The translations under genes were made by a program, and so were the position numbers. The notes under the pieces are model-generated. The model saw only the letters and a program-made list of their open reading frames with translations. It was not told the DNA's origin and ran no database searches. 64,000 bases of DNA from a virus: positions 326,762 through 390,761 of IMG/VR virus record IMGVR_UViG_3300020429_000529. One strand, given 5' to 3'. This document shows positions 1,163-14,501 of this stretch, one piece after another (position 1 is the stretch's first letter; each line of letters begins with the position of its first letter).

Positions 1163-1408
1163 TTTGAACATCAAGGACAACCGAGATCGACACAAAGAAC
1201 TGGTCCTCAAGAAATTCAGAGGTCCAGGTCTGACAGATGACGAGCAGAAGGAGTTGGTTGAGATCGAGACGGCGATCAGAGAAGCGGTCATGAAGGAGTT
1301 TCCGCCGCTCAAAGATGCCGAACAGAATCCCAATCAGACGGGCCACTGACAAAAATCTGTCCCTTCTGCGTGGAATCTTGGCCGATTTGGAAGAAAAAGA
1401 CGAAGAGA

Positions 1409-1439
1409 GGGAGGAAGTGACGCCGCAAGGCGGTATACT
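1409..1439 (+). repeat. conserved 31-nt element GGGAGGAAGTGACGCCGCAAGGCGGTATACT, copy 1
   Basis: 30/31 identity with 11180-11210; GGAGG plus a GCAA-loop hairpin plus TATACT; about 220 nt upstream of the terminator at 1658. Confidence 0.6.
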
Positions 1440-1657
1440 CACCCACCAAGAGCCGCGAGTTGCGGCGGAGATTGAAGCAATGATGTCAGTAAGGTCCAAA
1501 GCCAGAACCAACGTCAACCAGCGCAAGCAGGCATGGCGTCAGTTCGCGTATGCGGGTTTTGCAGCCCGTAATGCGAAGGGGCTTGGACCTCGCGGACCTC
1601 AACAGGAGATCGAGAACATCTGATCTTCTGAAGACAGGTCAAGCAGAGAGGATTCCA

Positions 1658-1686
1658 AGCCCCGAGCAGAAGCTCGGGGTTTTTTC
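1658..1686 (+). terminator. rho-independent terminator
   Basis: gccccgagcagaagctcgggg hairpin followed by TTTTTT. Confidence 0.7.
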
Positions 1687-1696
1687 GTGCAAATAT

Positions 1697-1769
1697 GGGG
1701 CTATAGCGTAACTGGTAACGCGTCTCGATGGCATTGAGAAGAGTAGGGGTTCGAGTCCCCTTAGCTCCA
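1697..1769 (+). tRNA. tRNA-Ala(GGC)
   Basis: Full cloverleaf, G3:U70 pair, anticodon loop aUGGCAu, T-loop TTCGAGT. Confidence 0.85.
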
Positions 1770-1812
1770 CTTATGAGAGTTCGCAAGTTCTCTCAAGAAC
1801 GTAGTTCGCTTC

Positions 1813-1836
1813 GTTCGACTTCTTTGACAAGTGAAT
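1813..1836 (+). promoter_or_regulatory. recurrent motif TTCGACTTCTTTGACAAGTGAATA (contains TTGACA), copy 1
   Basis: 23/24 identical to 11544-11567; related CTCTTTGAC(A/T)A motifs at 5246, 26157 and 34750; 10 nt upstream of tRNA-Phe. Confidence 0.4.
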
Positions 1837-1845
1837 ACCTGCTAT

Positions 1846-1918
1846 TGGGTCAGTAGCTCAGTTGGTAGAGCAGTGGATTGAAGATCCGCGTGTCGTTGGT
1901 TCGAATCCGACCTGGCCC
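1846..1918 (+). tRNA. tRNA-Phe(GAA)
   Basis: gggtcag/ctggccc acceptor, tagctcagttggtagagca D-arm, anticodon loop uUGAAGa. Confidence 0.85.
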
Positions 1919-1925
1919 ACTTTAT

Positions 1926-1998
1926 AGCCTCGTAGCATAATTGGTAATGCAGGAGCCTCTGAAGCTCTGTATTGGGGGTTCGAGTCCCTCCGAGGCTG
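1926..1998 (+). tRNA. tRNA-Gln(CUG)
   Basis: agcctcg/cgaggct acceptor, anticodon stem ggagc/gctct, loop cUCUGaa. Confidence 0.8.
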
Positions 1999-2091
1999 TT
2001 TGATCTGGCGTGGGAATAGACGACCGAAACAGGTAATGCTGAACTGGTCACCCTTTGCGTATGGGCGAGTAGTCCTGAGAGTCAGATCGTT

Positions 2092-2165
2092 ATCCCGGTA
2101 GCTCAACTGGACAGAGTACCTGACTACGAATCAGGCGGTTGGGGGTTCGAATCCCTCTCGGGATG
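2092..2165 (+). tRNA. tRNA-Arg(ACG)
   Basis: atcccgg/tcgggat acceptor, anticodon stem cctga/tcagg, loop cUACGaa, T-loop TTCGAAT. Confidence 0.8.
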
Positions 2166-2203
2166 TTAGGCAAAGGTCGAAGGTTCGATTCCTTCTGCAT
2201 CAT
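2166..2203 (+). other. tRNA 3' half fragment (anticodon-loop UUA + 3' anticodon stem ggcaa + T-arm + 3' acceptor), matches the 5' half at 2239-2272
   Basis: ggcaa pairs with ttgcc of the downstream 5' half; T-arm gaaggTTCGATTccttc; acceptor tgcatca. Confidence 0.45.
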
Positions 2204-2238
2204 CACGGATCCTGAGACTGTTCGCGCAAACAGTCAAG

Positions 2239-2272
2239 AGATGTATAGCTCAATGGTGGAGCATTGCCATTT
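2239..2272 (+). other. tRNA 5' half fragment (acceptor agatgta, D-arm, 5' anticodon stem ttgcc, loop AUUU)
   Basis: tagctcaatggtggagca D-arm; ends exactly where tRNA-Ala(CGC) begins. Confidence 0.45.
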
Positions 2273-2345
2273 GGGGACGCATGTTCCAACGGCGGCGAAC
2301 TTCCCTCGCAAGGAAGTTGGGAGGGTTCGATTCCCTTCGTCTCCA
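2273..2345 (+). tRNA. tRNA-Ala(CGC)
   Basis: ggggacg/cgtctcc acceptor with G3:U70, anticodon stem cttcc/ggaag with loop cUCGCaa, T-arm gagggTTCGATTccctt; weak G-U rich D-stem. Confidence 0.6.
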
Positions 2346-2351
2346 CTTTAC

Positions 2352-2424
2352 GGGGTCGTAGCTCAACTGGTAGAGCATCTGCTTTGCAAGCAGAGGGTTA
2401 GGGGTTCGAGTCCCCTCGATTCCA
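2352..2424 (+). tRNA. tRNA-Ala(UGC)
   Basis: ggggtcg/cgattcc acceptor with G3:U70, anticodon stem tctgc/gcaga, loop uUUGCaa. Confidence 0.8.
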
Positions 2425-2546
2425 CTTACGGTATTGCCAACACGCCATTGCAGGTCTTTCCATGGACTGCAAGAAAGAGGGCTGGTTCCCTGAACCAATA
2501 CAGTCATTTGTTGAAGGCCTCTTCAAATGACTCAATCAGGATTTTC

Positions 2547-2626
2547 GGGTAGGCTATCCTGGGAGAGACAAGCTGGCTGTAAACCAGTGGCATTTTGCTG
2601 AGCAGGTTCGAATCCTGTCCTACCCA
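2547..2626 (+). tRNA. tRNA-Tyr(GUA), class II with long variable arm
   Basis: gggtagg/cctaccc acceptor, anticodon arm gctgg-CUGUAAA-ccagt (loop identical to E. coli Tyr), T-arm gcaggTTCGAATcctgt; D-arm unusual. Confidence 0.6.
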
Positions 2627-2637
2627 CTTTCTTTGTT

Positions 2638-2722
2638 AGGCGATAATGGGCAGTAGGTTTGCCCCGAGGGGAGTCATGACCCCAGTGTCAAAACGAAACA
2701 GGTTCGATTCCTGTATTGCCTG
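2638..2722 (+). tRNA. tRNA-like gene, 85 nt, anticodon arm not resolvable (gggg-AGUCAUGA-cccc)
   Basis: aggcgat/attgcct acceptor, gggc/gccc D-stem, acaggTTCGATTcctgt T-arm. Confidence 0.4.
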
Positions 2723-2726
2723 CCTT

Positions 2727-2811
2727 GGGAGATGATCTTGCCGGGTGACTGTAAATCACTTGACTTGTATATGGCAAGTGGCGTCAAGGGGTTCGATTCC
2801 TCCATCTCTCA
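2727..2811 (+). tRNA. tRNA-Tyr(GUA)-like with a shortened D region (possible pseudogene)
   Basis: gggagat/atctctc acceptor, ggtga-CUGUAAA-tcact anticodon arm, long variable hairpin, T-arm aggggTTCGATTcctcc. Confidence 0.45.
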
Positions 2812-3110
2812 TTCGTTTGTTTCAGGAGGGGATGCAATGCTTGAGTTCAAGAAAACAGCAGAATGCTCCCTCAATCAGGAAGGCATCAATCAGGTCAAAC
2901 AACTCAGCACCGATATGATGCTGGGCAATGTAGTCGAACGAATCGTTCGTATCGGATCGCATGACTACAACCTGAAGAGGGAAGGAAACAAAGTCGTCGT
3001 CTATCGTATGAAGATGACTCTCGAACAGAACGACCGTAATGTTCATGGCATGAACAGGAGAAAGTAATGACTGCTCTACGAAAACACAAACCGACCTGCA
3101 AGACAACCTT

Positions 3111-3194
3111 GGGTCGGTGACTGAGAGGCCGAAAGTATCCGCCTTTTAAGCGGGCAGCGAAAGCTCATCGCGGGTTCGAATCCTGCCCGGCCCA
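3111..3194 (+). tRNA. class II-like tRNA with anticodon UUU; variable arm carries a GCGAAAGC hairpin
   Basis: gggtcgg/ccggccc acceptor, 3-bp D-stem with 11-nt loop, anticodon arm tccgc-CUUUUAA-gcggg, variable cagcgaaagctcatc, T-arm gcgggTTCGAATcctgc. Confidence 0.5.
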
Positions 3195-3201
3195 CTTCAC
3201 T

Positions 3202-3274
3202 GGGGGCGTAGCTCAGTTGGTAGAGCATCGGACTTTTAATCCGAGGCGCGCAGGTTCGAGTCCTGTCGCCCTCA
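3202..3274 (+). tRNA. tRNA-Lys(UUU)
   Basis: gggggcg/cgccctc acceptor, anticodon arm tcgga-CUUUUAA-tccga, canonical class I structure. Confidence 0.85.
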
Positions 3275-3278
3275 TTTA

Positions 3279-3351
3279 GGAACGATGGTGTAGTTGGTCT
3301 GCACGCTTGTCTGAAGAACAAGAGGTCACGGCTCGAAACCGTGTCGTTCCA
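3279..3351 (+). tRNA. tRNA-Phe(GAA), atypical T-loop CTCGAAA
   Basis: ggaacga/tcgttcc acceptor, anticodon arm cttgt-CUGAAGA-acaag. Confidence 0.7.
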
Positions 3352-3358
3352 TTTTCAT

Positions 3359-3430
3359 ACCTCGGTAGCTCAATTGGCAGAGCAGCAGACTCTTAATCTG
3401 TGGGTTGTGGGTTCGACTCCCTCCCGGGGT
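3359..3430 (+). tRNA. tRNA-Lys(CUU)
   Basis: acctcgg/ccggggt acceptor, tagctcaattggcagagca D-arm, anticodon arm gcaga-CUCUUAA-tctgt. Confidence 0.8.
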
Positions 3431-3437
3431 ACTTTGA

Positions 3438-3509
3438 CGGGTCCGAAGCATAGGAGGAGATGCACCTGGCTCTTAACCAGGAGAAGAGGGTTCGAATCCC
3501 TACGGACTC
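3438..3509 (+). tRNA. tRNA-Lys(CUU), second copy
   Basis: gggtccg/cggactc acceptor, anticodon arm cctgg-CUCUUAA-ccagg, T-loop TTCGAAT. Confidence 0.75.
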
Positions 3510-3600
3510 ATTTGAAACAGGTCGAAAGCAATCAGTTAACAAGTTCAAATCCTGTATTCCCCACTTCAACAACTCTTGGGGAATTGCCTATTGGAGGCAC
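3510..3600 (+). other. degenerate tRNA-like region (T-arm-like acaagTTCAAATcctgt + attcccc upstream of a GGGGAAT acceptor-like 5' piece)
   Basis: The pieces resemble tRNA parts in the wrong order; no complete cloverleaf found. Confidence 0.25.
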
Positions 3601-3628
3601 CTGAAAGCACCAACATACCTGTTTTGTT

Positions 3629-3702
3629 TCCTCAGTAGCTCAGTTGGTAGTAGCGAATGGCTGTTAACCATTAGGTCGCTGGTTCGAGCCCAGCCTGAGG
3701 AG
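3629..3702 (+). tRNA. tRNA-Asn(GUU)
   Basis: tcctcag/ctgagga acceptor, anticodon arm aatgg-CUGUUAA-ccatt, T-arm gctggTTCGAGCccagc. Confidence 0.85.
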
Positions 3703-3832
3703 TTTAGAGAACGAGTCGAAGAGGCTTCGGTTATCACTTTGATTTTGATTCAAAATGCCCAAAGCGCCTGCCTGTAAAGCAGGAAATGCTGGGGGTAAAA
3801 ACACCGATCTTCACCCCATATTCGTTCTTGTT

Positions 3833-3920
3833 TCTGAGGTAGCCGAGTGGTAGCAGGCGTCTGACTGTTAATCAGAAGGGAGTCACATCCCCGTCGTTGG
3901 TTCGAATCCAACCCTCAGAG
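3833..3920 (+). tRNA. Ser-like class II tRNA body with anticodon GUU (Asn codons)
   Basis: tctgagg/cctcaga acceptor, Ser-type D-arm gcc-gagtggtagca-ggc, anticodon arm tctga-CUGUUAA-tcaga, 19-nt variable arm, T-arm gttggTTCGAATccaac. Confidence 0.6.
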
Positions 3921-4042
3921 TTTTTGATCTACGAAAGGTCTTTCGTTCCGAGTATCTCACAAAATACGGAGGGCCTTGTCTTGAATGTCTGAATCCGTGA
4001 CTTGTGCTTCGCATCCGAAGCGCTAACGGAGAGGACAGAGAC

Positions 4043-5122
4043 ATGAAGAAGGTCACGGTCAAGCCAACGCTTGTAGCATCTGCTGGATACGCAAAACCAG
4101 TAAACGTTGGTCAGAATGACGATATATTGAGCGAAAAAGAACAGCAGATCAAGAATCTTGCTGATCGACTCATCGCCGCAGTTCCTTGCGCTTCATCGAA
4201 CTGGGCAGAGGACAACCCTCACCATATGGGCTACGGACTCAAGTCCGAGGGCGGCTGGATGAGGTTCATGCAAGGTCACATCTGGCGCTGCGTTAGCGAG
4301 CTTGGATACAGACGAGTCTTCTTCCATCTTCCGTTCGGCAAAACAACGGGTCAGTCTCCTTACGAAGTTCAGAAGCGAGCTTTTGAAGCTGAGTATGGGC
4401 AGCCTTACTCAGAATGGACAGACGAGCAGAAAGCCGTTCTCGAAGACATGGACCTCAAGAGATGGCATATGAGTATCGATCATATGCACGACCTCGAACG
4501 AACAGGTAACGAGTTTATCGCAACTGGCTTCTATGAGGCGCTCGATTGGATTCATGAACAGGATCCGGGCGTTGAGATCATCTGCTACATCGGTTCGTAT
4601 GATTCGGAAGACAAGGGTCGCATCGACAACGGCGAGTACGGCGCAGTCTTCTTTGATTGGTGGAGATCAGTTTATCCGTTGATCGATCGAGACTGGGTTT
4701 CGATCGTCTACGATGCTGCGGTCGGTAAAGAACCTGACCACATCAACGCAAGGCTTGCTCAGCTAACGCAAGACGCAAAGAACCGTCAGCCTGGACGCTT
4801 TGTAGGGGTTGAGGCTCGCATCCAGAAGGGTCGTCCTTGGCCGAACGATTTGGGTATGACATGCGTTGCTTGGGCGGCGACATGGAGACGACAGGCTCAT
4901 TCGGGGAACATTCCTCGGGAGTTCTTGACTGTTCCGCCGATCGTTGTTTACGACGGGCACGCAAAGAGTCAGGTCAACAACAGCTACAATGGCGACTGGT
5001 TCGCATACATGGCTGAAGACTTGGCGCAAAACTGTCAGATCGCTCCTTCTCCGCTTGGAGGCGAGTTTGCGACCCTGACAACGACAGAGGTAGCCGCCAG
5101 ATTGTTAGATCTGGTTTCGTAG
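4043..5122 (+). CDS. hypothetical protein, paralog family A (with 19743, 38401, 39861)
   Basis: GGAGAGGA RBS before the ATG at 4043; shares RVFFHLPFG / IICYIGSYD-type motifs with three other ORFs in the window. Confidence 0.65.
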   Translation: MKKVTVKPTLVASAGYAKPVNVGQNDDILSEKEQQIKNLADRLIAAVPCASSNWAEDNPHHMGYGLKSEGGWMRFMQGHIWRCVSELGYRRVFFHLPFGKTTGQSPYEVQKRAFEAEYGQPYSEWTDEQKAVLEDMDLKRWHMSIDHMHDLERTGNEFIATGFYEALDWIHEQDPGVEIICYIGSYDSEDKGRIDNGEYGAVFFDWWRSVYPLIDRDWVSIVYDAAVGKEPDHINARLAQLTQDAKNRQPGRFVGVEARIQKGRPWPNDLGMTCVAWAATWRRQAHSGNIPREFLTVPPIVVYDGHAKSQVNNSYNGDWFAYMAEDLAQNCQIAPSPLGGEFATLTTTEVAARLLDLVS

Positions 5123-5245
5123 GAGAATGACATGTTGTTTCACACTTGTTTACAGATGAAGGTGTGGGTTCGCCCATCTCTGGTCGATTGAGATCAAGTT
5201 TCTGCTTCATCCGAAAGCCTGGCCTCATGGAAACGGAACGCTTTA

Positions 5246-5258
5246 CTCTTTGACTAAG
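5246..5258 (+). promoter_or_regulatory. CTCTTTGACTAAG motif copy
   Basis: Variant of the recurring CTCTTTGACAAG motif, in a 260-nt noncoding stretch. Confidence 0.25.
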
Positions 5259-5388
5259 GGTAAATCTCCGCTCTGGTCTTATTGGATTGAAATCCATGTA
5301 GGACCGATTTGGCTCAAGATCTACAAGCGGACGCTGAAGATGTGGAAGCAAGATCAGGAGTCGATCAAGAGGGCCAAGAAAAAATCAT

Positions 5389-5460
5389 GACTCGGTAGCT
5401 CAGCGGTAGAGCGGTCGCCTGTTAAGCGACTTGTCGAGGGTTCGATCCCCTCCCGAGTCT
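5389..5460 (+). tRNA. tRNA-Asn(GUU), second copy
   Basis: gactcgg/ccgagtc acceptor, anticodon arm gtcgc-CUGUUAA-gcgac. Confidence 0.85.
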
Positions 5461-5487
5461 TTTTGCTTCCTTGGGAAGGGTTGCAGT

Positions 5488-5560
5488 GCGCCGATAGCTC
5501 AATTGGTAGAGTCCTGGATTCCAAATCCAGTTGTTGGGAGTTCGAATCTCTCTCGGCGTG
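5488..5560 (+). tRNA. tRNA-Trp(CCA)
   Basis: gcgccga/tcggcgt acceptor, anticodon arm ctgga-UUCCAAA-tccag. Confidence 0.85.
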
Positions 5561-5561
5561 T

Positions 5562-5632
5562 TGAGGAGTCGTCTAAAGGTAGGACGCTGGATTTTGGTTC
5601 CGGAGATGCTGGTTCGAGTCCAGCCTCCTCAG
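5562..5632 (+). tRNA. tRNA-Gln(UUG)
   Basis: tgaggag/ctcctca acceptor, anticodon arm ctgga-UUUUGGU-tccgg, T-arm gctggTTCGAGTccagc. Confidence 0.75.
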
Positions 5633-5637
5633 TTCTT

Positions 5638-5709
5638 TGAAAGGTCGTCTAATTGGTAGGACGCTGGGTTCTGATCCCGGAAATGCTGGTTCGAGTCCAG
5701 CCCTTTCAG
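5638..5709 (+). tRNA. tRNA-Gln(CUG)
   Basis: tgaaagg/cctttca acceptor, anticodon arm ctggg-UUCUGAU-cccgg. Confidence 0.8.
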
Positions 5710-5713
5710 TTTC

Positions 5714-5815
5714 GGTTACAACTTGCAGAGGTCTGGTACATCTGCGGCGCGTCGCGATTCCGTAAGCTCAGCGCGAGGGTCATTCGGCCCCTCAAGTCGG
5801 TTCGAATCCGAGACG
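5714..5815 (+). other. elongated tRNA-like element (acceptor ggttaca/cgtaacc, T-arm tcggTTCGAATccga) with about 30 extra nt
   Basis: Ends pair but the internal cloverleaf is not resolvable; possible intron-containing or decayed tRNA. Confidence 0.3.
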
Positions 5816-5861
5816 TAACCAAGCAGTATCGAGGGACGCTTCGATGTCTGCTTTTTGATTG

Positions 5862-5983
5862 CCCTGTGGCGGAATGGTAGACGCACGGAAGACATTCCGA
5901 TTCGCCGTTCGAGTCGGCAAAGTAGGCGGATGCGCTGAAATCAAAGGTAGAATGTAGGTTCGAATCCTACCAGGGCAACTTGT
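5862..5983 (+). other. elongated tRNA-like element with Leu-type D-arm (tggcggaatggtagacgc) and two T-arm-like hairpins
   Basis: Acceptor tgccctg/cagggca pairs across 122 nt; internal gccgTTCGAGTcggc and gtaggTTCGAATcctac. Confidence 0.3.
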
Positions 5984-5990
5984 TCGAGTA

Positions 5991-6067
5991 GCGGCGGAAG
6001 CTGCATTGGTTCAGCGGTCGGATTCCAAATCCGATGTCTATGTGGGGTTCGAGTCCTCCCCGTCGCG
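5991..6067 (+). tRNA. tRNA-Trp(CCA), second copy, 8-nt variable region
   Basis: gcggcgg/ccgtcgc acceptor, anticodon arm tcgga-UUCCAAA-tccga. Confidence 0.6.
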
Positions 6068-6074
6068 TTTTGTT

Positions 6075-6146
6075 TGCCCCATGGTGTAACTGGCAACACG
6101 ACTGATTCTGATTCAGTTATTCCTGGTTCAAATCCAGGTGGGGTAG
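6075..6146 (+). tRNA. tRNA-Gln(CUG)
   Basis: tgcccca/tggggta acceptor, anticodon arm actga-UUCUGAU-tcagt, T-arm cctggTTCAAATccagg. Confidence 0.8.
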
Positions 6147-6150
6147 TTTA

Positions 6151-6287
6151 GTCAACGTGGTGTAACTGGCAACACACTTAAACGCCTTTCGCCATACCAT
6201 ACCTGTCTCGGGATCCCCGACAGGTCGAAGGATGGAAGGTTAACCTCTTGCAAAGGAGAGCTTCAGGTTCGAATCCTGACGTTGGCA
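6151..6287 (+). tRNA. insert-containing tRNA-like gene (137 nt); anticodon arm atypical (ctct-UUGCAAAGG-agag)
   Basis: Acceptor gtcaacg/cgttggc, D-arm same as the tRNA at 6075, then an insert of about 65 nt sharing aacgcctttcgccataccata...gtcgaaggatggaaggttaac with 6291-6421, T-arm tcaggTTCGAATcctga. Confidence 0.45.
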
Positions 6288-6290
6288 TTT

Positions 6291-6421
6291 CTCAGCGTGG
6301 TGTAATGGTAGCACAGTAACAAACGCCTTTCGCCATACCATATTTCGTAAGAAGTCGAAGGATGGAAGGTTAACATTCCTCTGTAAAAGGAAAGGTTCGG
6401 GTTCGAATCCCGACGCTGGGT
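6291..6421 (+). tRNA. insert-containing tRNA-Tyr(GUA)-like gene (131 nt)
   Basis: Acceptor ctcagcg/cgctggg, D-arm, about 55-nt insert paralogous to the one in 6151-6287, anticodon arm ttcct-CUGUAAA-aggaa, T-arm tcgggTTCGAATcccga. Confidence 0.5.
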
Positions 6422-6425
6422 TTTT

Positions 6426-6537
6426 GGTGCCGCACGAGGAATGATCCCAGAAGCGCGCGATCCCAAGATGAAGGAGAGGCCTCTCTTGATTCGAGGGTGA
6501 TCATGGGATGGAGGTTCGATGCCTCCCGGCGCTGTTT
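6426..6537 (+). other. elongated tRNA-like element (acceptor ggtgccg/cggcgct, T-arm ggaggTTCGATGcctcc; possible anticodon loop UUGAUUC)
   Basis: 112 nt with an internal palindrome gagaggcctctc; structure only partly resolvable. Confidence 0.3.
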
Positions 6538-6540
6538 GAT

Positions 6541-6617
6541 AGTCCCGTAGCTCAGACTGGTTAGAGCGCTATCCCGACACGATAGGACATGCGGAGGTTC
6601 GAATCCTCTCGGGACTA
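6541..6617 (+). tRNA. tRNA-Val(GAC), unusual C33 and 7-nt variable loop
   Basis: agtcccg/cgggact acceptor, anticodon arm ctatc-CCGACAC-gatag. Confidence 0.6.
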
Positions 6618-6623
6618 TTTGTT

Positions 6624-6699
6624 ACCGCCAAGGTGTAATGGAATTATGCACGCTACCCTGCGAAGGTAGAGGCTCTTGGTTCGATTCCAAGTGGCGGTG
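6624..6699 (+). tRNA. tRNA-Arg(GCG)
   Basis: accgcca/tggcggt acceptor, anticodon arm ctacc-CUGCGAA-ggtag, T-arm cttggTTCGATTccaag. Confidence 0.75.
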
Positions 6700-6787
6700 T
6701 TCAAACCTGGAGTTAGCTAAACTCCCTCATCAAATGAGTACCGACAGTTTTGACCCGTATCCAATCGGGGAGGTCTGTCAGCTTTAT

Positions 6788-6861
6788 GGGCGGCTGGGAA
6801 AACTGGCTAATCCGCTTGTGTTACATACAAGAGACTCTCGGTTCGAGTCCGAGGCTGCCTA
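6788..6861 (+). tRNA. tRNA-Val(UAC)
   Basis: gggcggc/gctgcct acceptor, anticodon arm cttgt-GUUACAU-acaag, T-arm ctcggTTCGAGTccgag. Confidence 0.75.
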
Positions 6862-6882
6862 CTTTTGAAAGGAGGAGATGCA

Positions 6883-7041
6883 ATGGAACATCTCTATGAT
6901 CGGAACGGTCTCGTCTTCTGGACCGAAGATGAGATTCTCGCCAGAGAGGATATGGCGAGCCGTTTGAGTCGCACGGTCCAATCGAATCTGCGGGAGCAAA
7001 ACCCGGGTTTCGGTTCGCTCGGGTCGAGGCACCTCAGCTAA
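6883..7041 (+). CDS. small hypothetical protein (52 aa)
   Basis: AAGGAGGAG RBS 6 nt upstream of the ATG; below the ORF-track size cutoff. Confidence 0.4.
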   Translation: MEHLYDRNGLVFWTEDEILAREDMASRLSRTVQSNLREQNPGFGSLGSRHLS

Positions 7042-7124
7042 CCCCTCTTGATCGGATTAATCCGAACTACTCGGAAGATGACTACTTCCGAACAGATGAG
7101 TTAGCGCTTCGACCCGAGACCACC

Positions 7125-7550
7125 ATGGGCTCATACGCCTACGCTCGACACCTTCTGACTTCGCAGAAGAAGATCAGACTGCCGCTCGTCATCTGGCAGC
7201 ACGGTAAGAGCTTCCGCAGGGAGCAAGATCAAGTCACCAAGAACATGAGACTCAAGGAGTTCTATCAGCTTGAGTTTCAGATCATGTTTGCGCCGACCAC
7301 GGCAAACGACTACTCGATCAAGCTCATTCCTGCGATTCGGCGTATCATCGAGTTGTTCATCGGTCCCTGCCGAGTCGAGCCGTCCGACAGACTGCCCGAC
7401 TACGCAGAATGGACTCAAGACATTGTGAGAGAAGCGAACGACATGGAAGTCTGTTCAGTTTCTCTCCGTCACGACTTTGATCTTGCAAAGGTCTTGGAGG
7501 TGGCGATCGGAACTGATAGACTTGTTTACAACCACTTTGATTGGCTGTAA
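7125..7550 (+). CDS. class II aminoacyl-tRNA synthetase motif-2 fragment (GlyRS/HisRS-like), 141 aa
   Basis: GKSFRREQDQVTKNMRLKEFYQLEFQIMF resembles class IIa motif 2 (GKxFRNE...REFxQxExE); no in-frame ATG upstream. Confidence 0.45.
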   Translation: MGSYAYARHLLTSQKKIRLPLVIWQHGKSFRREQDQVTKNMRLKEFYQLEFQIMFAPTTANDYSIKLIPAIRRIIELFIGPCRVEPSDRLPDYAEWTQDIVREANDMEVCSVSLRHDFDLAKVLEVAIGTDRLVYNHFDWL

Positions 7551-7554
7551 GCTG

Positions 7555-7932
7555 GTGAAGATTTGCAGAGGAACCAACAGAATCGTCTTTCTTGTTTCTC
7601 GCTGGGCGATCAAAATCCCAGCGTTCATTCCTCATGGCTGGTCTTTGGGAATCTATGGCATTCTGGCATCGCTGCGAGAAGCCGGATCCTGGGAGGCCGT
7701 CTGCTGCGAAGGCGCTGCAAATGAGGACTGCAAGCCAATGCTTGTTCCTGTCCGTTGGAGCTTTGCGGGATTGATACTGGTTCAGCCCCGAGGTACAGAG
7801 GTATCAACGCAGGAATGGAATGATTGGGATGGCTTCGATAGAATGACAAAGTTCTGCGGAGACATCAAGCAGGAGAACACTGTTTGGTTGAACGGCAAAA
7901 TACGAGTATGCGACTATGGATCGGTCGCATAA
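7555..7932 (+). CDS. hypothetical protein with a protein-kinase-like catalytic-loop/DFG segment (GTG start)
   Basis: CGDIKQENTVWLNGKIRVCDYG resembles HGDLKPENILL...IKIxDFG; start chosen at the first in-frame GTG after the upstream stop. Confidence 0.35.
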   Translation: MKICRGTNRIVFLVSRWAIKIPAFIPHGWSLGIYGILASLREAGSWEAVCCEGAANEDCKPMLVPVRWSFAGLILVQPRGTEVSTQEWNDWDGFDRMTKFCGDIKQENTVWLNGKIRVCDYGSVA

Positions 7933-7935
7933 CTT

Positions 7936-8017
7936 GCGGGCGTAGTCTAACGGTAAGGCACTGGCCTTCGAAGCCAGCGGTGAAAATCCATTGGGGGTTC
8001 GAATCCCTCCGCCCGTG
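7936..8017 (+). tRNA. tRNA-Arg(UCG) with an enlarged 15-nt variable region
   Basis: gcgggcg/cgcccgt acceptor, anticodon arm ctggc-CUUCGAA-gccag, T-arm gggggTTCGAATccctc. Confidence 0.65.
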
Positions 8018-8031
8018 TTTAGGAGAATCAG

Positions 8032-8604
8032 ATGGCAACCATTGAAGACGGACGCTACATCGAAGCCCCTCAAACACTGCCCATTCGGGCGCTGATTGCT
8101 GACCATATCAGGACGGTCTTCCTGGCTGGCGGCATATCGGGCACCGAAGACTGGCAGATACATGCCGCTCAACGCTTCATCGATGAAAGCCGTCTGACGG
8201 TCATCAATCCTCGTCGTCCTGGCGGCTTGTCCAAGACAGGAGATGAAGCTGCTCGACAGATCCAATGGGAGTTTGAGTCTCTGCGGCATTCGCAGTTCGT
8301 TCTTTTCTGGTTCCCTCCTGAAACTGTCTGCCCCATCGCTCTCTTTGAGTTGGGGACATTCCTCGGAAGAGGTCGAAACTACCGCTTCGAGGGGAAGAGA
8401 CCGATCGACGGAGGAGAGGGATACAACGGCACTCCGTGGCCGTACATCTATGTCGGATGCCATCCAGACTACTCTCGTCGTTTCGATCTCGAACAGCAGA
8501 TTCCGCTGTACGATGAAAGAGTTACTCTCAGGTACGATCTTGATGAGGTCATCGATGCGATCATCGAGGACAGCAAGATTCTCGCCGAGAGACGAGATTC
8601 GTAA
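8032..8604 (+). CDS. nucleoside 2-deoxyribosyltransferase-like protein (tentative)
   Basis: AGGAGA RBS; VFLAGGISGTEDWQ...NPRRPGG pattern. Confidence 0.55.
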   Translation: MATIEDGRYIEAPQTLPIRALIADHIRTVFLAGGISGTEDWQIHAAQRFIDESRLTVINPRRPGGLSKTGDEAARQIQWEFESLRHSQFVLFWFPPETVCPIALFELGTFLGRGRNYRFEGKRPIDGGEGYNGTPWPYIYVGCHPDYSRRFDLEQQIPLYDERVTLRYDLDEVIDAIIEDSKILAERRDS

Positions 8605-8858
8605 TGGCAAAGAAAAAGGTCATCCATGTCAACCGTCAGTTCATTGCGATGAACGCCAAAGACGGAAGAAACCGACCTGTCTTCACGATCAAAGAAGGCG
8701 GCAAGGTTACTTACGCTCGCAACGTTGAGATCCTTGGGCCATGCAAGCTGCTTGGTACGGCGGATCAACTCAGTTGCGGCGCAAGAGCTTGGATCGAAAC
8801 AACATCAGACGTTGCTTTGGATGACCCGATGACTTTTGCCGAGGCAAAGGCATCGTAG
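8604..8858 (+). CDS. hypothetical protein
   Basis: ATG overlaps the upstream stop (TAATG); 84 aa, basic N-terminus. Confidence 0.5.
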   Translation: MAKKKVIHVNRQFIAMNAKDGRNRPVFTIKEGGKVTYARNVEILGPCKLLGTADQLSCGARAWIETTSDVALDDPMTFAEAKAS

Positions 8859-8866
8859 CAAACATT

Positions 8867-8957
8867 GCCCCCGTAGCTCAATTGGAAGAGCGGCCGGCTT
8901 CTATCCGGTTTAGACCAACTAAGGTCGAGGTTGAGGGTTCGAGTCCTTCCGGGGGTG
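8867..8957 (+). tRNA. tRNA-Arg(UCU)-like with class I D-arm and a 23-nt variable arm
   Basis: gcccccg/cgggggt acceptor, anticodon arm gccgg-CUUCUAU-ccggt, variable hairpin gacc...ggtc, T-arm gagggTTCGAGTccttc. Confidence 0.55.
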
Positions 8958-8976
8958 CTTTGAAAGGAGAGTCGCT

Positions 8977-9342
8977 ATGGGATGGGATATTGACCTGACT
9001 CGCAATGACGAGACCCTCGAAGTATCGCCTCATCAGACCGGCTCGATTCAGCAAGCCGAAATGATCGATGGCGTTTTGGTCGCCGTTGATCGATCGGAAG
9101 CGTCTTGCTGTATCACTTACAACTACTCGAAACTTTACGGCATGGTTGGTTTCTCGATGAGAGACCTGGATGGCAAGACCGCCAGCGAAACCGCCGAATC
9201 GCTCCGCTCCGCTGTCGAGAAGCTTGGCACGGACAAGTACGACGACTATTGGGCTCCGACGCCTGGTAACGCAGGAGCGGCGCTTCAGACGCTTCTGAGT
9301 TGGGCTGAAGAGCATCCTGATGGCGTTTGGAAAGTCACCTAA
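8977..9342 (+). CDS. hypothetical protein
   Basis: AAGGAGAG RBS; 121 aa. Confidence 0.55.
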   Translation: MGWDIDLTRNDETLEVSPHQTGSIQQAEMIDGVLVAVDRSEASCCITYNYSKLYGMVGFSMRDLDGKTASETAESLRSAVEKLGTDKYDDYWAPTPGNAGAALQTLLSWAEEHPDGVWKVT

Positions 9343-9352
9343 CAGGTGCCTC

Positions 9353-9368
9353 GTTTGTGATGTATAAT
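9353..9368 (+). promoter_or_regulatory. sigma70-like -10 (TGTATAAT) only 7 nt upstream of the ATG at 9376 (leaderless candidate)
   Basis: Perfect TATAAT at 9363-9368 immediately preceded by TG; weak -35. Confidence 0.4.
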
Positions 9369-9375
9369 CTCGCGC

Positions 9376-9807
9376 ATGAGTAACAAAACATCACGGCTAA
9401 AACGCGCCATCGAAAAAGGAGACGATTGGTCATGCGCCATTCGTCAAGTCATGCTGCCCCGAGACACGAACATGTACGGGACAGTCTTCGGCGGCATCAT
9501 TCTCAGCATGATTGACCAGGCCGCCCTTGTTGAGGCAAGGCTGCATGGCATCCACAAATGGGTGACCGCTTCTTTCGATCGAGTCGATTTCAAGTCGCCA
9601 ATTCGGGTCGGAGACACGGTTAGTCTTTACACTCGAACGGAAAAGCTTGGAACCTCAAGCGTGACTGTTGAGATCAGCGTAGAGGTTCATCGTTATGATT
9701 CAAACGCCATTCATGAGGTCACGAAGGCTGTTGTGACTATGGTTTCTGTTGGTCATGACGGACGACCGATCCCGTTTACCGAGCCATCGACGCTATTAGA
9801 ACAGTAG
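9376..9807 (+). CDS. acyl-CoA thioesterase (hotdog fold, YciA-like)
   Basis: PRDTNMYGTVFGGIILSMIDQAA matches the YciA-type DTNANGxIFGG motif. Confidence 0.75.
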   Translation: MSNKTSRLKRAIEKGDDWSCAIRQVMLPRDTNMYGTVFGGIILSMIDQAALVEARLHGIHKWVTASFDRVDFKSPIRVGDTVSLYTRTEKLGTSSVTVEISVEVHRYDSNAIHEVTKAVVTMVSVGHDGRPIPFTEPSTLLEQ

Positions 9808-9879
9808 GATGTCTTGAAGGACATTTGGCTTCAGGTATGAAAATGTGAAGTATCGCACGACATACTTGGAGTCAACAAA

Positions 9880-10194
9880 ATGAAGAAACTACTGGCATGT
9901 GTCGCAATCCTCGGTATGAACGCTGTTTCTCTCGGATTCGCCGCTCATTTTGCGGTGAATAGCGAGCTAAACGCCGCAGATGAACTGGTCCCGCTTGCTG
10001 ATCGCCGTCCCGCTGAACTAACATGGGAACATGTAGAAAGCGAAGACGGAGGCGTTCTTGCTTGGATCGAGACCGATGAAGATGGCGAGCGTCATCAATA
10101 CGAAACCCGTATTCCCGCTTCTGATCCCGAAGCAGATGAAAACATCAACGAATGGGACAAGCAGAATGCGGAAGATTGGAAGCCTGGCGAATAG
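9880..10194 (+). CDS. secreted acidic protein with signal peptide
   Basis: N-terminal MKKLLACVAILGMNAVSLGFAA signal-like segment. Confidence 0.55.
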   Translation: MKKLLACVAILGMNAVSLGFAAHFAVNSELNAADELVPLADRRPAELTWEHVESEDGGVLAWIETDEDGERHQYETRIPASDPEADENINEWDKQNAEDWKPGE

Positions 10195-10381
10195 GAGGTT
10201 GTCATATGTCGAGGCGTAACGCATAACAGAAACGTTTAGGGAGAACTATGAGTTCTACCTGCGTTTCAAGAATGATCTTTCCAGTCAAACTGGCTGGTAC
10301 AGCAAGGATCAGTACCCATACGATAAGGACGGGCACGATCCGATCGAAGTATTCGAGAGCATCGAAAGCAGAGGCAAGATT

Positions 10382-10690
10382 TTGCCCTGCAACGATGTAG
10401 AAACCCTCGTCAAAGCTCTCGATGGCAAACGGAGCATCAACCTTCATATCAAGATGTGGGCTGAAGGCATCGCCGAGGGCTCGTTCTTCAAGTGGGAGAT
10501 TCAAGAGTCGTTTCCATATCTGCCGAAGTGGGTATGGGAGAGCCTGAATAACCAGATCTGGAAGAAAGATCCAGACGGCAAGAGATTCGAGATGACGGGC
10601 TTTCTGTATCTCGAAAGATTGACAAGACCTGATGGACGAGAAGATCAAGCAACTCGGAGACACACTCGCAAGCCTCAAGACAGCGGGTGA
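10382..10690 (+). CDS. hypothetical protein (TTG start per ORF track)
   Basis: 102-aa ORF with no in-frame ATG upstream. Confidence 0.35.
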   Translation: MPCNDVETLVKALDGKRSINLHIKMWAEGIAEGSFFKWEIQESFPYLPKWVWESLNNQIWKKDPDGKRFEMTGFLYLERLTRPDGREDQATRRHTRKPQDSG

Positions 10691-10826
10691 GGCGAAGGCT
10701 GTCGGCGAGGCGCTGGCGGCTTCTCTTGGCGGGCACGAGCCTCCCTCAGCGGGAGGAGCGGTTCAGTCGAGTCCGAAGCCGTCGCCCACGCCGTTGGCCG
10801 CAGCAGCAAGCACAGAGACCCCGTAG
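10632..10826 (+). CDS. hypothetical small Ala/Pro-rich protein
   Basis: 64-aa ORF; its TAG stop is formed by U8-A9-G10 of the downstream tRNA. Confidence 0.3.
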   Translation: MDEKIKQLGDTLASLKTAGEAKAVGEALAASLGGHEPPSAGGAVQSSPKPSPTPLAAAASTETP

Positions 10827-10891
10827 CATAATATGGACAATGCATCTGCCTCCTAAGCAGACGATTAGAGGTTCGAATCCTCTCGGGGTCG
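10817..10891 (+). tRNA. tRNA-Arg(CCU)
   Basis: gaccccg/cggggtc acceptor, anticodon arm tctgc-CUCCUAA-gcaga, T-arm agaggTTCGAATcctct. Confidence 0.85.
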
Positions 10892-10914
10892 TTCAGAACA
10901 TAGCAGGTATTCAC

Positions 10915-11154
10915 ATGGAATCTCATTGCACAGGACCAAAGGTTTCTCAAATGTCTGACGAGGAAGCTCATGCAGTTCTCGCAGAGATGGACCTGCCGCC
11001 CAAGCGTATCGAATCGCTGACCGAATACAATCTCGGTTGGCTGAGGCGAAACGTCTGGATCAGAAACGGCAACCATCCTCGCTGCGCTGCGCTAATGATG
11101 TGGCTTCGGGAGAGGATGGCTGATTTTTCTGCCACTGACGGCGTGGAATCCTAA
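10915..11154 (+). CDS. hypothetical protein
   Basis: First ATG downstream of the tRNA within ORF 10687-11154, whose N-terminal part is a tRNA read-through artefact. Confidence 0.35.
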   Translation: MESHCTGPKVSQMSDEEAHAVLAEMDLPPKRIESLTEYNLGWLRRNVWIRNGNHPRCAALMMWLRERMADFSATDGVES

Positions 11155-11179
11155 GCATTTTCGAGATTTTCTTCCGATG

Positions 11180-11210
11180 AGGGAGGAAGTGACGCCGTAA
11201 GGCGGTATAC
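11180..11210 (+). repeat. conserved 31-nt element, copy 2 (GGGAGGAAGTGACGCCGTAAGGCGGTATACT)
   Basis: 30/31 identical to 1409-1439; about 210 nt upstream of the terminator at 11389. Confidence 0.6.
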
Positions 11211-11388
11211 TGAGGAACCGCAAGGGCGGAGATTGTACGAACCATGAAGACCATGACCTCAACAACCGGGCATATGACAACGACCCAAAGCGGCGGAAGC
11301 TGCGGCGGTACGTCGTCTTGCGCCATGGCTGGGTCTGGCCCTTCTGGTCCGTAATACTGCACGGACAAGCACGGAAGAGGATACCAGA

Positions 11389-11418
11389 GCCCCAGCCTAC
11401 GAAGGTTGGGGCTTTTTT
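11389..11418 (+). terminator. rho-independent terminator
   Basis: gccccagcctacgaaggttggggc hairpin followed by TTTTTT. Confidence 0.7.
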
Positions 11419-11434: not shown

Positions 11435-11518
11435 GAGGGTGAAGTCTATTCGGCATGACGCCTGCCTTCCAAGCAGGAGAGCGAAAGCTCATTGCGGGTT
11501 CGAATCCCGTCACCCTCT
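11435..11518 (+). tRNA. class II-like tRNA with anticodon UCC; variable arm carries a GCGAAAGC hairpin
   Basis: gagggtg/caccctc acceptor, 3-bp D-stem, anticodon arm cctgc-CUUCCAA-gcagg, variable agagcgaaagctcatt, T-arm gcgggTTCGAATcccgt. Confidence 0.55.
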
Positions 11519-11543
11519 TTAGACAAACCAGAAGACTTCGGTC

Positions 11544-11567: not shown

Positions 11568-11593
11568 GAGACGATTTGAAAGACTTCTCTTAA

Positions 11594-11841: not shown

Positions 11842-11846
11842 TTTTT

Positions 11847-11919: not shown

Positions 11920-11927
11920 TTTGATTC

Positions 11928-14500: not shown

Positions 14501-14501
14501 T

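Follow-up and report, generated by a model that had tools for sequence, protein, structure and literature searches.

Two paralogous units within a viral tRNA array

The window analyzed here is a 64,000-nt stretch of IMG/VR record IMGVR_UViG_3300020429_000529, a marine viral-type replicon of ~499 kb. It holds 46 tRNA genes and a transfer-messenger RNA (tmRNA) gene, all on the plus strand, and the tRNA genes at positions 1093 to 26111 form a single dense array. The subject of this report is a pair of paralogous units, each ~280 nt long, that stand within this array and comprise a short open reading frame (ORF) followed by an intrinsic terminator. Unit 1 precedes sub-array 1 (1697 to 10891, plus strand), which contains 26 tRNA genes (three for Ala, two for Phe, four for Gln, five for Arg, one for Tyr, four for Lys, three for Asn, two for Trp, and two for Val) with interspersed ORFs and begins with tRNA-Ala(GGC) at 1697 to 1770 (plus strand), 10 nt past the T-tract of the unit. 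Unit 2 precedes sub-array 2 (11435 to 26111, plus strand), which begins with tRNA-Gly(UCC) at 11435 to 11518 (plus strand), 16 nt past the T-tract, and contains genes for Gly (four), Thr (five), Met, His, Gln, Ser (four), and Cys (two), along with a candidate miniature RNase P RNA and interspersed ORFs. The tRNA-His(GUG) gene (15800 to 15874), which has an extra 5' G and an unusual D-arm, was missed by ARAGORN and found by Rfam (45 bits). Because the first tRNA of each sub-array starts so close to the T-tract, neither has space for a promoter of its own. A final terminator (AAGGCCCC-ctttc-GGGGCCTT; 26138 to 26158, plus strand) lies just past the last tRNA, and this and the two unit terminators are the only strong plus-strand terminators within the array.

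A preliminary description of this DNA had drawn attention to a repeated 31-nt element (the 31-mer), GGGAGGAAGTGACGCCG(C/T)AAGGCGGTATACT, and the repeat is borne out: the window contains exactly two copies, both on the plus strand and identical at 30 of 31 positions. The first lies where it was originally placed, at 1409 to 1439, and the second occupies 11181 to 11211, starting one nucleotide later than the position first given (11180). None of 100 dinucleotide shuffles of the window contained a match to the 31-mer, which, once the tRNAs are masked, is the third-longest exact repeat of the window. A GNRA loop accounts for the sole difference between the copies, its N being C in unit 1 (GCAA) and T in unit 2 (GTAA). 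Since this C-to-T change gives unit 2 a TAA stop in a frame that unit 1 leaves open, the 31-mer is noncoding; the ORFs flanking the two copies are also unrelated, and the idea that the element is merely the conserved part of two homologous protein genes can be discarded. A search of other genomes, suggested at the same time, did not extend the family: the exact DNA pattern was absent from the viral contigs and GTDB genomes searched, and JGI metagenomes returned three chance hits, two of them within Lon-protease-like coding sequence.

The homology between the units is wider than the 31-mer. Full-length alignment reveals a mosaic of five conserved islands across ~480 nt, of which the 31-mer is the best conserved, separated by unrelated cargo (the upstream ORFs, the small ORFs, and the tRNAs all differ). 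Island (a), GCGTGGAATC, lies ~31 nt 5' of the 31-mer, at 1368 to 1377 in unit 1 and 11141 to 11150 in unit 2 (plus strand). Island (b) is a 33-nt block that includes the 31-mer; the unit 1 copy (1407 to 1439, plus strand) reads GAGGGAGGAAGTGACGCCGCAAGGCGGTATACT and contains the GC palindrome CGCC-N4-GGCG, and the unit 2 copy (11179 to 11211, plus strand) has the loop GTAA. Island (c), GGCGGAGATTG, stands immediately 5' of each ATG, island (d), AGAGGATWCCA, runs into each terminator, and island (e), a hairpin plus TTCGACYTCTTTGACAAGTGAATA that includes the 17-mer TCTTTGACAAGTGAATA, follows the first downstream tRNA. Block (a) is conserved between the units but read in different frames in each, and it is possibly an upstream promoter or regulator site. 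It is also close to the reverse complement of GATTCCA in block (d) (1650 to 1657 and 11379 to 11386) in unit 1, with one mismatch in unit 2. Such complementarity might close the unit as a whole by pairing over a long range, or it may be fortuitous; in unit 2 the match is imperfect.

Downstream of the 31-mer, each unit has a second small hairpin in its 5' untranslated region (GCCGC-gagtt-GCGGC, within 1452 to 1474, in unit 1; CCGC-aagg-GCGG, within 11218 to 11235, in unit 2; both plus strand), with a Shine-Dalgarno (SD) sequence in the following block (c). The GGAGG within the 31-mer is not the ribosome-binding site (RBS) of the small ORFs, as each ORF has its own GGAG 9 to 12 nt before the ATG. 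Confident genes in this genome use GGAG(A/T) located 6 to 10 nt 5' of the ATG, and the GGAGAT of block (c) fits this pattern exactly. The ORFs themselves are the 47-aa frame reported earlier (1480 to 1623, plus strand; MMSVRSKARTNVNQRKQAWRQFAYAGFAARNAKGLGPRGPQQEIENI) and a second frame that encodes 36 aa rather than the reported 35 (11244 to 11354, plus strand; MKTMTSTTGHMTTTQSGGSCGGTSSCAMAGSGPSGP) and that gene callers never called. The terminators lie, as described, ~220 nt 3' of the 31-mers: AAGCCCCGAGC-agaa-GCTCGGGGTT plus a T-tract in unit 1 (1657 to 1686, plus strand; -19.6 kcal/mol), with the next gene 10 nt on, and a 13-bp stem plus a T-tract in unit 2 (11386 to 11418, plus strand; -22.4 kcal/mol). 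The initial picture of paralogous ~250-nt units that end in terminators and each contain a translatable small ORF thus stands; the accompanying suggestion that they are small RNAs (sRNAs) or stand-alone small-protein genes is unlikely to hold, for reasons given below.

Predicted leader peptides, competing hairpins, and the downstream tRNAs

The two predicted peptides are enriched in different residues, A/R/Q/N/K/F/V/W/Y in peptide 1 and G/T/S/C/M/H/Q in peptide 2, and each ORF samples the tRNAs that follow it: Ala/Phe/Gln/Arg/Tyr/Lys/Asn/Trp/Val in unit 1 and Gly/Thr/Met/His/Gln/Ser/Cys in unit 2. In peptide 1, 31 of the 47 residues belong to the downstream tRNA set, compared with a background of 0.42. 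In peptide 2, 30 of 36 residues were in the set before His was added (background, 0.27; binomial P = 2e-12) and 31 of 36 afterwards. The addition amounted to an unplanned test, as His10, the lone mismatch in codons 3 to 26, was explained once the sequence at 15800 to 15874 proved to be tRNA-His(GUG). Among 745 ORFs of at least 30 aa, no other reaches the in-set fraction of either peptide. Residue counts also track tRNA gene counts (Pearson r = 0.73 for peptide 1 and 0.95 for peptide 2), a relationship that is lost when the tRNA sets are swapped (r = -0.11 and -0.36). At the level of codons, 17 of 18 downstream anticodon species in unit 1 and 13 of 13 in unit 2 have a cognate codon in the leader. 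This coverage was matched by 1% of null windows for unit 1 and 0.1% (46 of 47,462) for unit 2, and no null window reached the coverage plus 31 cognate codons for either unit.

Each terminator overlaps a second, mutually exclusive hairpin of the kind expected of an antiterminator. In unit 1 this structure spans 1572 to 1667 (plus strand), with its 5' strand (1572 to 1594) in the ORF and its 3' strand (1645 to 1667), which includes block (d) AGAGGATTCCA, overlapping the 5' arm of the terminator. In unit 2 it spans 11326 to 11398 (plus strand), with its 5' strand (11326 to 11345) again in the ORF and its 3' strand (11374 to 11398) made up of block (d) AGAGGATACCA and the terminator 5' arm. The conserved block (d) is the 3' strand of the antiterminator, the 5' strands lie in the last third of each ORF, and in both units the stop codon (1621 to 1623 and 11352 to 11354) is inside the hairpin. 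The antiterminator duplex has a free energy of -29.0 kcal/mol in unit 1, a value reached by 0 of 1,000 shuffles (-16.4 +/- 2.6), and -27.4 kcal/mol in unit 2, reached by 1.2% of shuffles (-19.9 +/- 3.1); the whole hairpins come to -46.8 and -37.1 kcal/mol, respectively. To relate these structures to the ribosome, we simulated stalling with a kinetic criterion, namely, whether the terminator 5' arm is already sequestered when the 3' arm emerges. In this folding simulation, read-through is predicted when the A-site is at codons 1 to 29 (unit 1) or 1 to 24 (unit 2), and termination is predicted further along. The tRNA-matched residues make up 79% and 96% of these read-through zones in units 1 and 2, versus 44% and 67% of the remainder of each ORF.

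Judging from the sequence, transcription into the two tRNA sub-arrays is very probably gated by the two units, acting as ribosome-mediated (leader-peptide) attenuators. This reading draws on the anatomy of the units, the mirroring between codons and tRNAs, and the competing structures, and also on the pattern of substitutions between strains and the recurrence of the arrangement in other phage arrays, both of which are described below.

Folding of both units, a check that had been proposed at the outset, showed each to be more stable than its shuffles (z = -5.7 and -3.7). Such stability, together with conserved 5' and 3' ends and a variable middle, might also be expected of paralogous noncoding sRNAs of ~250 nt in which the ORFs are incidental, and the tRNA cluster of phage T4 likewise encodes small stable RNAs of unknown function. 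However, the structural signal is accounted for by the antiterminator/terminator pair, and a canonical SD and ATG are found at a conserved position in both units. The codon match to the downstream tRNAs exists in the ORF frame only, and the indel that separates two strains is in frame. A terminated sRNA that ends 10 to 16 nt before a promoterless tRNA would, moreover, silence that tRNA. Rfam searches with both units returned no family above threshold and no T-box match even at E <= 10; the only non-tRNA hint, in unit 1, was a weak match to Leu_leader, an attenuator. We therefore regard the sRNA explanation as highly unlikely.

Variation between strains points to where the constraint lies. A sister strain (L019) is represented by a 502-kb contig in which 3.5% of aligned positions differ from the window. 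Within unit 1, the differences are confined to 1473 to 1576, where the RBS spacer and the sensing portion of the ORF lie: one change affects the spacer, and the remaining ones are four synonymous and three missense substitutions and an in-frame deletion of a single codon. Over the preceding 133 nt (1340 to 1472), including the 31-mer, the two strains are identical, as they are over the following ~270 nt, which hold the antiterminator, the terminator, the tRNA, and block (e). Unit 2 of L019 has GCAA as the loop of its 31-mer; its other differences are one in the RBS spacer, one in the terminator loop, and one missense change. The distribution of these changes is in keeping with a leader peptide, for which the reading frame and the flanking RNA switch matter more than the exact peptide sequence. 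Other contigs that carry proteins of the window are mostly 99.9 to 100% identical to it, and the cluster members of the ORF containing leader 1 show no sequence variation.

The same changes bear on whether the units are simply stand-alone small-protein genes, encoding a basic 47-aa protein and a 36-aa, Cys/Gly-rich peptide like those of ribosomally synthesized and posttranslationally modified peptides (RiPPs), that came to lie in the array by chance. Both ORFs do have a good SD and ATG followed by a terminator, the 3-nt deletion in L019 keeps the frame, and the Gly/Ser/Cys-rich tail of peptide 2 bears what we take to be a superficial likeness to azole-type RiPP precursors. Yet about half of the strain substitutions are nonsynonymous and they are concentrated in the peptide, with invariant flanks, and the two peptides are unrelated to each other despite those near-identical flanks. 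No homologue of the 47-aa peptide was found among 1.84 billion protein representatives, a search made with this peptide alone, and neither peptide matches a Pfam or NCBIfam family. Considering the lack of a homologue or family match and the mixture of four synonymous changes, three missense changes, and a codon deletion, the peptides do not form a conserved small-protein family. Modification or partner genes are absent nearby. A small-protein function would also leave unexplained the tRNA match, the antiterminators, the tRNAs located 10 to 16 nt past the terminators, and the recurrence of the arrangement with unrelated peptides, and we give it very little weight.

The array as a whole is a hotspot for mobile endonucleases. 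Relative to the window, L019 has an HNH gene inserted at unit 2 (17791 to 18321 of its contig) and a PD-(D/E)XK gene inserted in sub-array 1 (7610 to 8023), and it lacks calls for four of the tRNAs that are called in the window. The order of the array is shuffled in a relative with 77% identity (L016). A 359-aa protein of the array has no relatives in IMG/VR or GTDB, and homologues of a 173-aa gene 5' of the array do not adjoin tRNA arrays in more distant relatives. Such insertions, tRNA gains and losses, and reordering, together with the fact that the islands flank unrelated cargo, would be in keeping with islands that are remnants of segmental duplication or recombination scars, terminators that end upstream operons, and an ORF composition that is coincidental. 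But scars would not be expected to stay 97 to 100% identical amid DNA that has diverged beyond recognition, nor to be invariant between strains against a background of 3.5%. Coincidence is very unlikely given the mirroring statistics and their replication in four other arrays, and we give this explanation very little credence.

The four other arrays were found by scanning IMG/VR with a 16-mer from block (e), a search in which many matches were due to chance. All four are tRNA arrays of huge phages in which a small ORF preceded by an SD mirrors the downstream tRNAs, with the number of residues in the set assessed by binomial P. In L103 (SD, GGCGGAG), the peptide MNNKIVHQVIWHVITFRGKGC (MNNKIVHQVIWHVI..) precedes tRNAs for Trp, Trp, Val, His, Ile, Ile, Val, Met, and Met; 10 of 21 residues are in the set (P = 0.002), and 6 of 6 anticodon species are sampled. 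The peptide of L131, MNRLFTTTSTTTLSLTWLSRSYLS... (..LFTTTSTTTLSLTWLSRSYLS..), precedes Leu, Ser, Trp, Phe, Tyr, and Thr tRNAs (21 of 33 residues, P = 6e-5; anticodons, 12 of 12), and that of L088, MLRYQWKSNNSFAPP... (..YQWKSNNSFA..), precedes Asn, Phe, Trp, Tyr, Gln, Ser, and Ala tRNAs (11 of 22 residues, P = 0.045, with 9 of 10 in the core; anticodons, 8 of 9). L036 encodes an Ala/Thr/Asp/Met-rich peptide, MKATFTTRTHTATTM...AATAAAA, before three Ala, one Cys, two Asp, three Thr, and one Met tRNA (25 of 40 residues, P = 6e-8; anticodons, 8 of 9). Strong terminators are present in L103, L088, and L131, where the 5' arm pairs with the 3' end of the ORF (p = 0.007, 0.004, and <0.001, respectively), the stop codon is within the hairpin, and the terminator arm begins 26 to 29 nt past the stop. 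Counting the two units of the window, the antiterminator beats shuffles in all five units that have terminators (observed value reached by 0/1000, 1.2%, 0.7%, 0.4%, and 0/1000), and the six units together sample 64 of 67 downstream anticodon species. Since the sequences are unrelated and the amino acid sets differ, these units represent a recurring design and not a shared ancestral sequence.

A further locus, on a low-GC viral contig of 73 kb (L043), has two tandem copies, at 8746 and 9641, of a small ORF (MVCRKNGYSM...), a terminator, and a boxA located 5' of tRNAs (Ile, Cys, Thr ...); it stops after three tRNAs.

Candidate transcription signals and other contents of the array

The 31-mer ends in TATACT, a 5/6 match to the -10 hexamer, located 40 nt (unit 1) or 32 nt (unit 2) 5' of the ATG. 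The analogous units in the other arrays have promoter-like sites of the sigma70 type in corresponding places: TTGACA-16-TATCCT in L131 (-10 to ATG, 28 nt), TTGACT-17-TAGAGT in L103 (19 nt), TTGACT-17-TATAGT in L088 (81 nt), and TTGACA-16-TATAAA in L036 (24 nt). The spacer of the L036 promoter, CCGCCcGGCGGTAT, resembles CGCCgcaaGGCGGTAT of the 31-mer, and the GC palindrome CCGCC..GGCGGTAT is common to both. On the basis of these similarities, we lean toward the view that the 31-mer is the promoter/operator of the leader transcript. Lacking a recognizable -35 element, it would need an activator or another sigma factor, possibly one encoded by the phage, and the replicon does encode sigma-like proteins. 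Sigma54 and extracytoplasmic function (ECF)-type readings of block (a) and the 31-mer were rejected by eye because the spacings do not fit.

The missing -35 would also be expected if the 31-mer were not a promoter but a transcribed RNA element, with a GNRA-capped hairpin and an SD-like GGGAGGA, in a longer transcript that starts upstream; it could then act in RNA processing or stability, serve as a standby site for ribosomes, or bind a regulator such as a CsrA-type protein. The sole substitution between the copies preserves the GNRA loop (GCAA/GUAA), GGA motifs are present, and a relative encodes CsrA. Read-through into the 31-mer from upstream is plausible, given that no terminator separates it from the upstream tRNA and ORF and that a sigma70-like site is located at 1019 to 1046. 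However, the RNA hairpin of the 31-mer is weak (-7.9 kcal/mol, z of about -1.6) and shows no covariation, and all 33 positions of the block are conserved, which suggests recognition of sequence over structure. TATACT stands where the bona fide -10 elements sit in the analogous units, the palindrome recurs in the L036 promoter spacer, and with a start just past TATACT, each of the two mRNAs would have the second hairpin right at its 5' end. A transcribed element is thus possible but the less probable of the two.

Two other sites in the array, GTTTGTGAT(GT)ATAAT at 9339 to 9375 and GTTTGTGATACAAT at ~13190 to 13217, lie 6 to 7 nt 5' of the ATGs of a 4HBT thioesterase gene (9376) and a sigma/LuxR-like gene (13218), respectively. 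Both resemble extended -10 promoters, from which leaderless mRNAs would arise.

Block (e) is a predicted rrn-type boxA antitermination site at which Nus factors are presumably loaded. The unit 1 copy (1800 to 1837, plus strand) consists of a boxB-like hairpin and the boxA TTCGACTTCTTTGACAAGTGAATA (1821 to 1837) and ends 10 nt 5' of tRNA-Phe. The unit 2 copy (11531 to 11567, plus strand) consists of the boxB-like hairpin GAAGAC-ttcg-GTCTTC and the boxA GACCTCTTTGACAAGTGAATA (11551 to 11567), and a third, diverged boxA-like copy, ACTTCTTTGACAAGT (26159 to 26173, plus strand), lies directly past the final terminator. The boxA core, CTCTTTGACAA (CTTCTTTGACAA; CTCTTTGAC), is identical at 10 of 11 positions to that of Escherichia coli rrnB, CTCTTTAACAA (TGCTCTTTAACAA), and the differing position tolerates either purine (PMC3177189). 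In the E. coli rrnB leader, a boxB hairpin is followed by acTGCTCTTTAACAATTTATCA. Candidate boxB hairpins stand 5' of all three copies in the window, those of copies 1 and 2 being weak (-8.4 and -8.7 kcal/mol, no better than shuffles). The position of boxA, early in a long untranslated operon, resembles that in rRNA operons and CRISPR arrays, where boxA-dependent Nus complexes shield long untranslated transcripts from Rho (PMC7665894). Two other readings of block (e) were tried, a sigma70 promoter, in which the -10 would fall where the tRNA begins, and a T7/SP6-like phage promoter; both were set aside once the boxA match had been verified.

The boxA-like 16-mer CTTTGACAAGTGAATA is found exactly in tRNA arrays on many IMG/VR viral contigs of 50 to 494 kb (loci L033, L036, L043, L088, L089, L091, L103, and L131), typically 8 to 52 nt 5' of a tRNA and often directly past a terminator. 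In viral arrays the boxA core has a conserved 3' extension, AGTGAATAG.

Sub-array 2 also contains a 242-nt candidate for a virus-encoded miniature RNase P RNA (11599 to 11840, plus strand) that is kept across diverged relatives (18454 to 18695 in L019; 16524 to 16745, 222 nt, in L016). It aligns end to end with the type-A model RF00010 (model positions 1 to 367) at 55.5 bits and an E value of ~1e-14 to 1e-16, a score short of the gathering threshold of 100. The blocks of the catalytic core are kept (GAGGAAgGUCgGGGC ... ACAGAACCCcGC), and the specificity domain is nearly gone (25 nt versus 110 in the model). We found no report in the literature of a phage-encoded RNase P RNA.

Several tRNA genes of the array are unusual. 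The first, a tRNA-like gene at 1093 to 1163, 5' of unit 1, has a 6-nt anticodon loop (AAUUAA; ARAGORN anticodon "tt") and is kept in L019 (6528 to 6598) and in L016 (451 to 523). A third unit 5' of the window that might serve the absent Leu, Ile, Pro, Glu, and Asp tRNAs was considered and ruled out, as the array begins inside the window. Class-I amino acid tRNAs (Lys, Asn, Arg, Gly, and Cys) of 84 to 92 nt are encoded at 3111 to 3195, 3832 to 3921, 7935 to 8018, 8867 to 8958, 11435 to 11518, and 21861 to 21945; the 84-nt tRNA-Gly(UCC) among them has an extra hairpin, GAGC-gaaa-GCTC, in its variable region, and the L019 version is of normal length (74 nt). T-arm-like GGTTCGAnTCC motifs with acceptor-like stems that standard tools did not call as tRNAs occur at ~2727 to 2810 (a probable class-II tRNA-Tyr[GUA]), 5860 to 5979, 6151 to 6421 (a tandem pair of ~135-nt repeats), 6445 to 6540, 16231 to 16302 (a Gln[UUG]-like tRNA with G33), 21945 to 21990 (an acceptor/T-arm minihelix), and 22511 to 22601, and others among these carry large inserts. 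Possible identities for these elements are tRNAs that are degenerate, split, or interrupted by introns, and other tRNA-like RNAs.

Two short ORFs within the array, at 7125 to 7550 and 16325 to 17068, encode the core of a class-II aminoacyl-tRNA synthetase (tRNA-synt_2b; Gly/His/Pro/Ser/Thr type); the stronger match (E = 3e-27) falls in the Gly/His/Ser/Thr sub-array, and a cysteinyl-tRNA synthetase (CysRS) gene lies just 5' of the array in L012. Outside the main array are two tRNAs with a CUA anticodon, that is, amber suppressors (52817 to 52888 and 56907 to 56982; labeled "Pyl" by ARAGORN), which hint at TAG recoding in part of the genome, and a full-length tmRNA (34768 to 35121; 119 bits), whose tag peptide reads ANSNTLRMAA. 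Some of the cargo is unusual for a replicon of viral type: a major vault protein homologue with Vault repeats and a shoulder domain, a WGR-PARP protein, and a PAS histidine kinase accompanied by two response regulators, at 30797 to 33544, 44620 to 46278, and 27882 to 29468, respectively.

Marine assemblies, those of Tara Oceans among them, contain identical or nearly identical DNA on contigs of ~499 to 502 kb, and related tRNA arrays are found on IMG/VR viral contigs of 437 to 494 kb. Because the replicon encodes sigma factors, CysRS, synthetase fragments, the major vault protein homologue, PARP, and a two-component system, and because one protein of the array has its nearest cellular homologues in Phycisphaerae, we regard the replicon as an element of the huge-phage type, perhaps one of Planctomycetota.

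Proposed attenuation mechanism and its relation to known systems

In the mechanism that we propose, transcription would begin just 3' of the 31-mer, with TATACT as the -10 and the remainder as promoter/operator; starting 6 to 8 nt past TATACT, both mRNAs would open with the second small hairpin. A ribosome would then translate the short ORF from the SD that follows this hairpin, and nearly all of the first ~24 to 29 codons would be read by tRNA species encoded downstream. If any matching tRNA were scarce, the ribosome would lag, leaving the 3' segment of the ORF free to pair with the terminator 5' arm and allowing read-through into the tRNA genes. If all matching tRNAs were ample, the ribosome would enter the antiterminator, the terminator would form, and transcription would end 10 to 16 nt before the first tRNA. 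A polymerase that reads through would meet boxB/boxA, where host Nus factors would presumably make it into a Rho-resistant complex able to cross the 9 to 15 kb of largely untranslated array; placed after the attenuator, boxA would leave the attenuation decision unaffected. The outcome would be a negative feedback that tops up the tRNA supply on demand.

A number of observations weigh against this interpretation. The antiterminators are far more stable than the terminators, and the units have no obvious 1:2 pause hairpin; on both counts the default state would be read-through, and termination would need tight coupling of transcription and translation. Equilibrium minimum free energy (MFE) folding with the full terminator favors the terminator in unit 2 at any ribosome position; we therefore dropped equilibrium MFE with a masked ribosome as a criterion, and the argument for a switch rests on kinetic reasoning. 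The promoter role is the weakest step, since the best candidate for a -35 in the 31-mer is GAGGAA (2/6). The mirroring was noticed post hoc, and we set the limits of the sub-arrays ourselves, as everything up to the next unit or the final terminator. At 36 and 47 aa, the leaders exceed the classical length, and they would sense seven to nine amino acids instead of one to three. Sub-array 1 also contains several odd tRNA-like elements. The HNH homing endonuclease gene of L019 is inserted between the T-tract of unit 2 and tRNA-Gly, and no such units are present in the 21 kb examined of the 77%-identity relative. Among the other arrays, the whole-peptide enrichment in L088 is marginal, and L036 has no canonical terminator. 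Translation, stalling-dependent read-through, the start site, and Nus loading are all deduced from sequence.

It has long been asked why phages carry tRNA genes and how these are expressed; the reasons proposed include compensation for codon usage, making good the loss of host tRNAs that are degraded, and escape from anticodon nucleases. If the attenuation model is correct, expression of phage tRNAs would be demand driven and not constitutive, and the phage itself would report which tRNAs are limiting, since each leader lists them codon by codon. Such feedback could match codon demand, or it could counter depletion of host tRNAs or defenses that cleave them, and the leaders would be rewritten whenever the content of the array changes. 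It seems to us reasonably likely that this is a general, modular feedback in which huge phages of this group gauge each tRNA species via sampler leaders, open the matching sub-array when it is limiting, and then load Nus factors at boxA. A single viral module for tRNA production appears to include the units, the boxA sites, and the miniature RNase P RNA. For annotation, small ORFs before terminators in tRNA arrays should be labeled leaders and not hypothetical proteins.

The setting of the units is a familiar one: the T4 tRNA region and the arrays of huge phages (PMC7162821, PMC4758250) are likewise dense, same-strand tRNA arrays with tmRNA, synthetase fragments, and homing endonucleases. We found no report in the literature of feedback control of phage tRNA arrays by leader peptides, of boxA sites or RNase P RNA within them, or of leader-peptide attenuators of such arrays. 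The boxA sites resemble the rrn boxB-boxA sites that load NusB/NusE, which also precede CRISPR arrays (PMC7665894), in their boxA core and in standing early in a long, untranslated operon of multiple RNAs; the hairpins before them are candidate boxB elements. They differ in lying within tRNA arrays, 3' of an attenuator and sometimes past the first one to three tRNAs, and in the 3' extension of the viral boxA, which is unlike E. coli.

The units share with T-box riboswitches the sensing of tRNA status and the switching between antiterminator and terminator ahead of translation-related genes. A T-box, however, binds uncharged tRNA via a specifier codon and without translation, whereas the sensor in the phage units is a predicted translated ORF. 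The closest likeness is to classical attenuators (trpL, hisL, leuL, thrL, ilvL, pheL, and pheM), which similarly have a short, SD-preceded ORF with many regulatory codons, an antiterminator overlapping both the terminator 5' arm and the 3' portion of the ORF, and an intrinsic terminator just before the regulated genes. Multi-amino-acid leaders exist among them (thr and ilv), and the product of pheST is also part of the translation apparatus. Unlike these systems, with their runs of one to three amino acids, the phage leaders sample five to nine amino acids and nearly every anticodon species; they have no sequence similarity to known leaders and are found in huge phages. An attenuator-like, Phe-rich leader before E. 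coli pheU/pheV was considered as a precedent and dropped, as the K-12 genes show plain promoters and no leader ORF. To our knowledge, all leader-peptide attenuators described so far control amino acid biosynthesis or aminoacyl-tRNA synthetase genes. The phage units are set apart from these families by the genes that follow them, which are the tRNAs themselves and not biosynthetic enzymes or synthetases, and would, if the model holds, extend classical attenuation to a new class of regulated genes, with single leaders that integrate five to nine amino acids.

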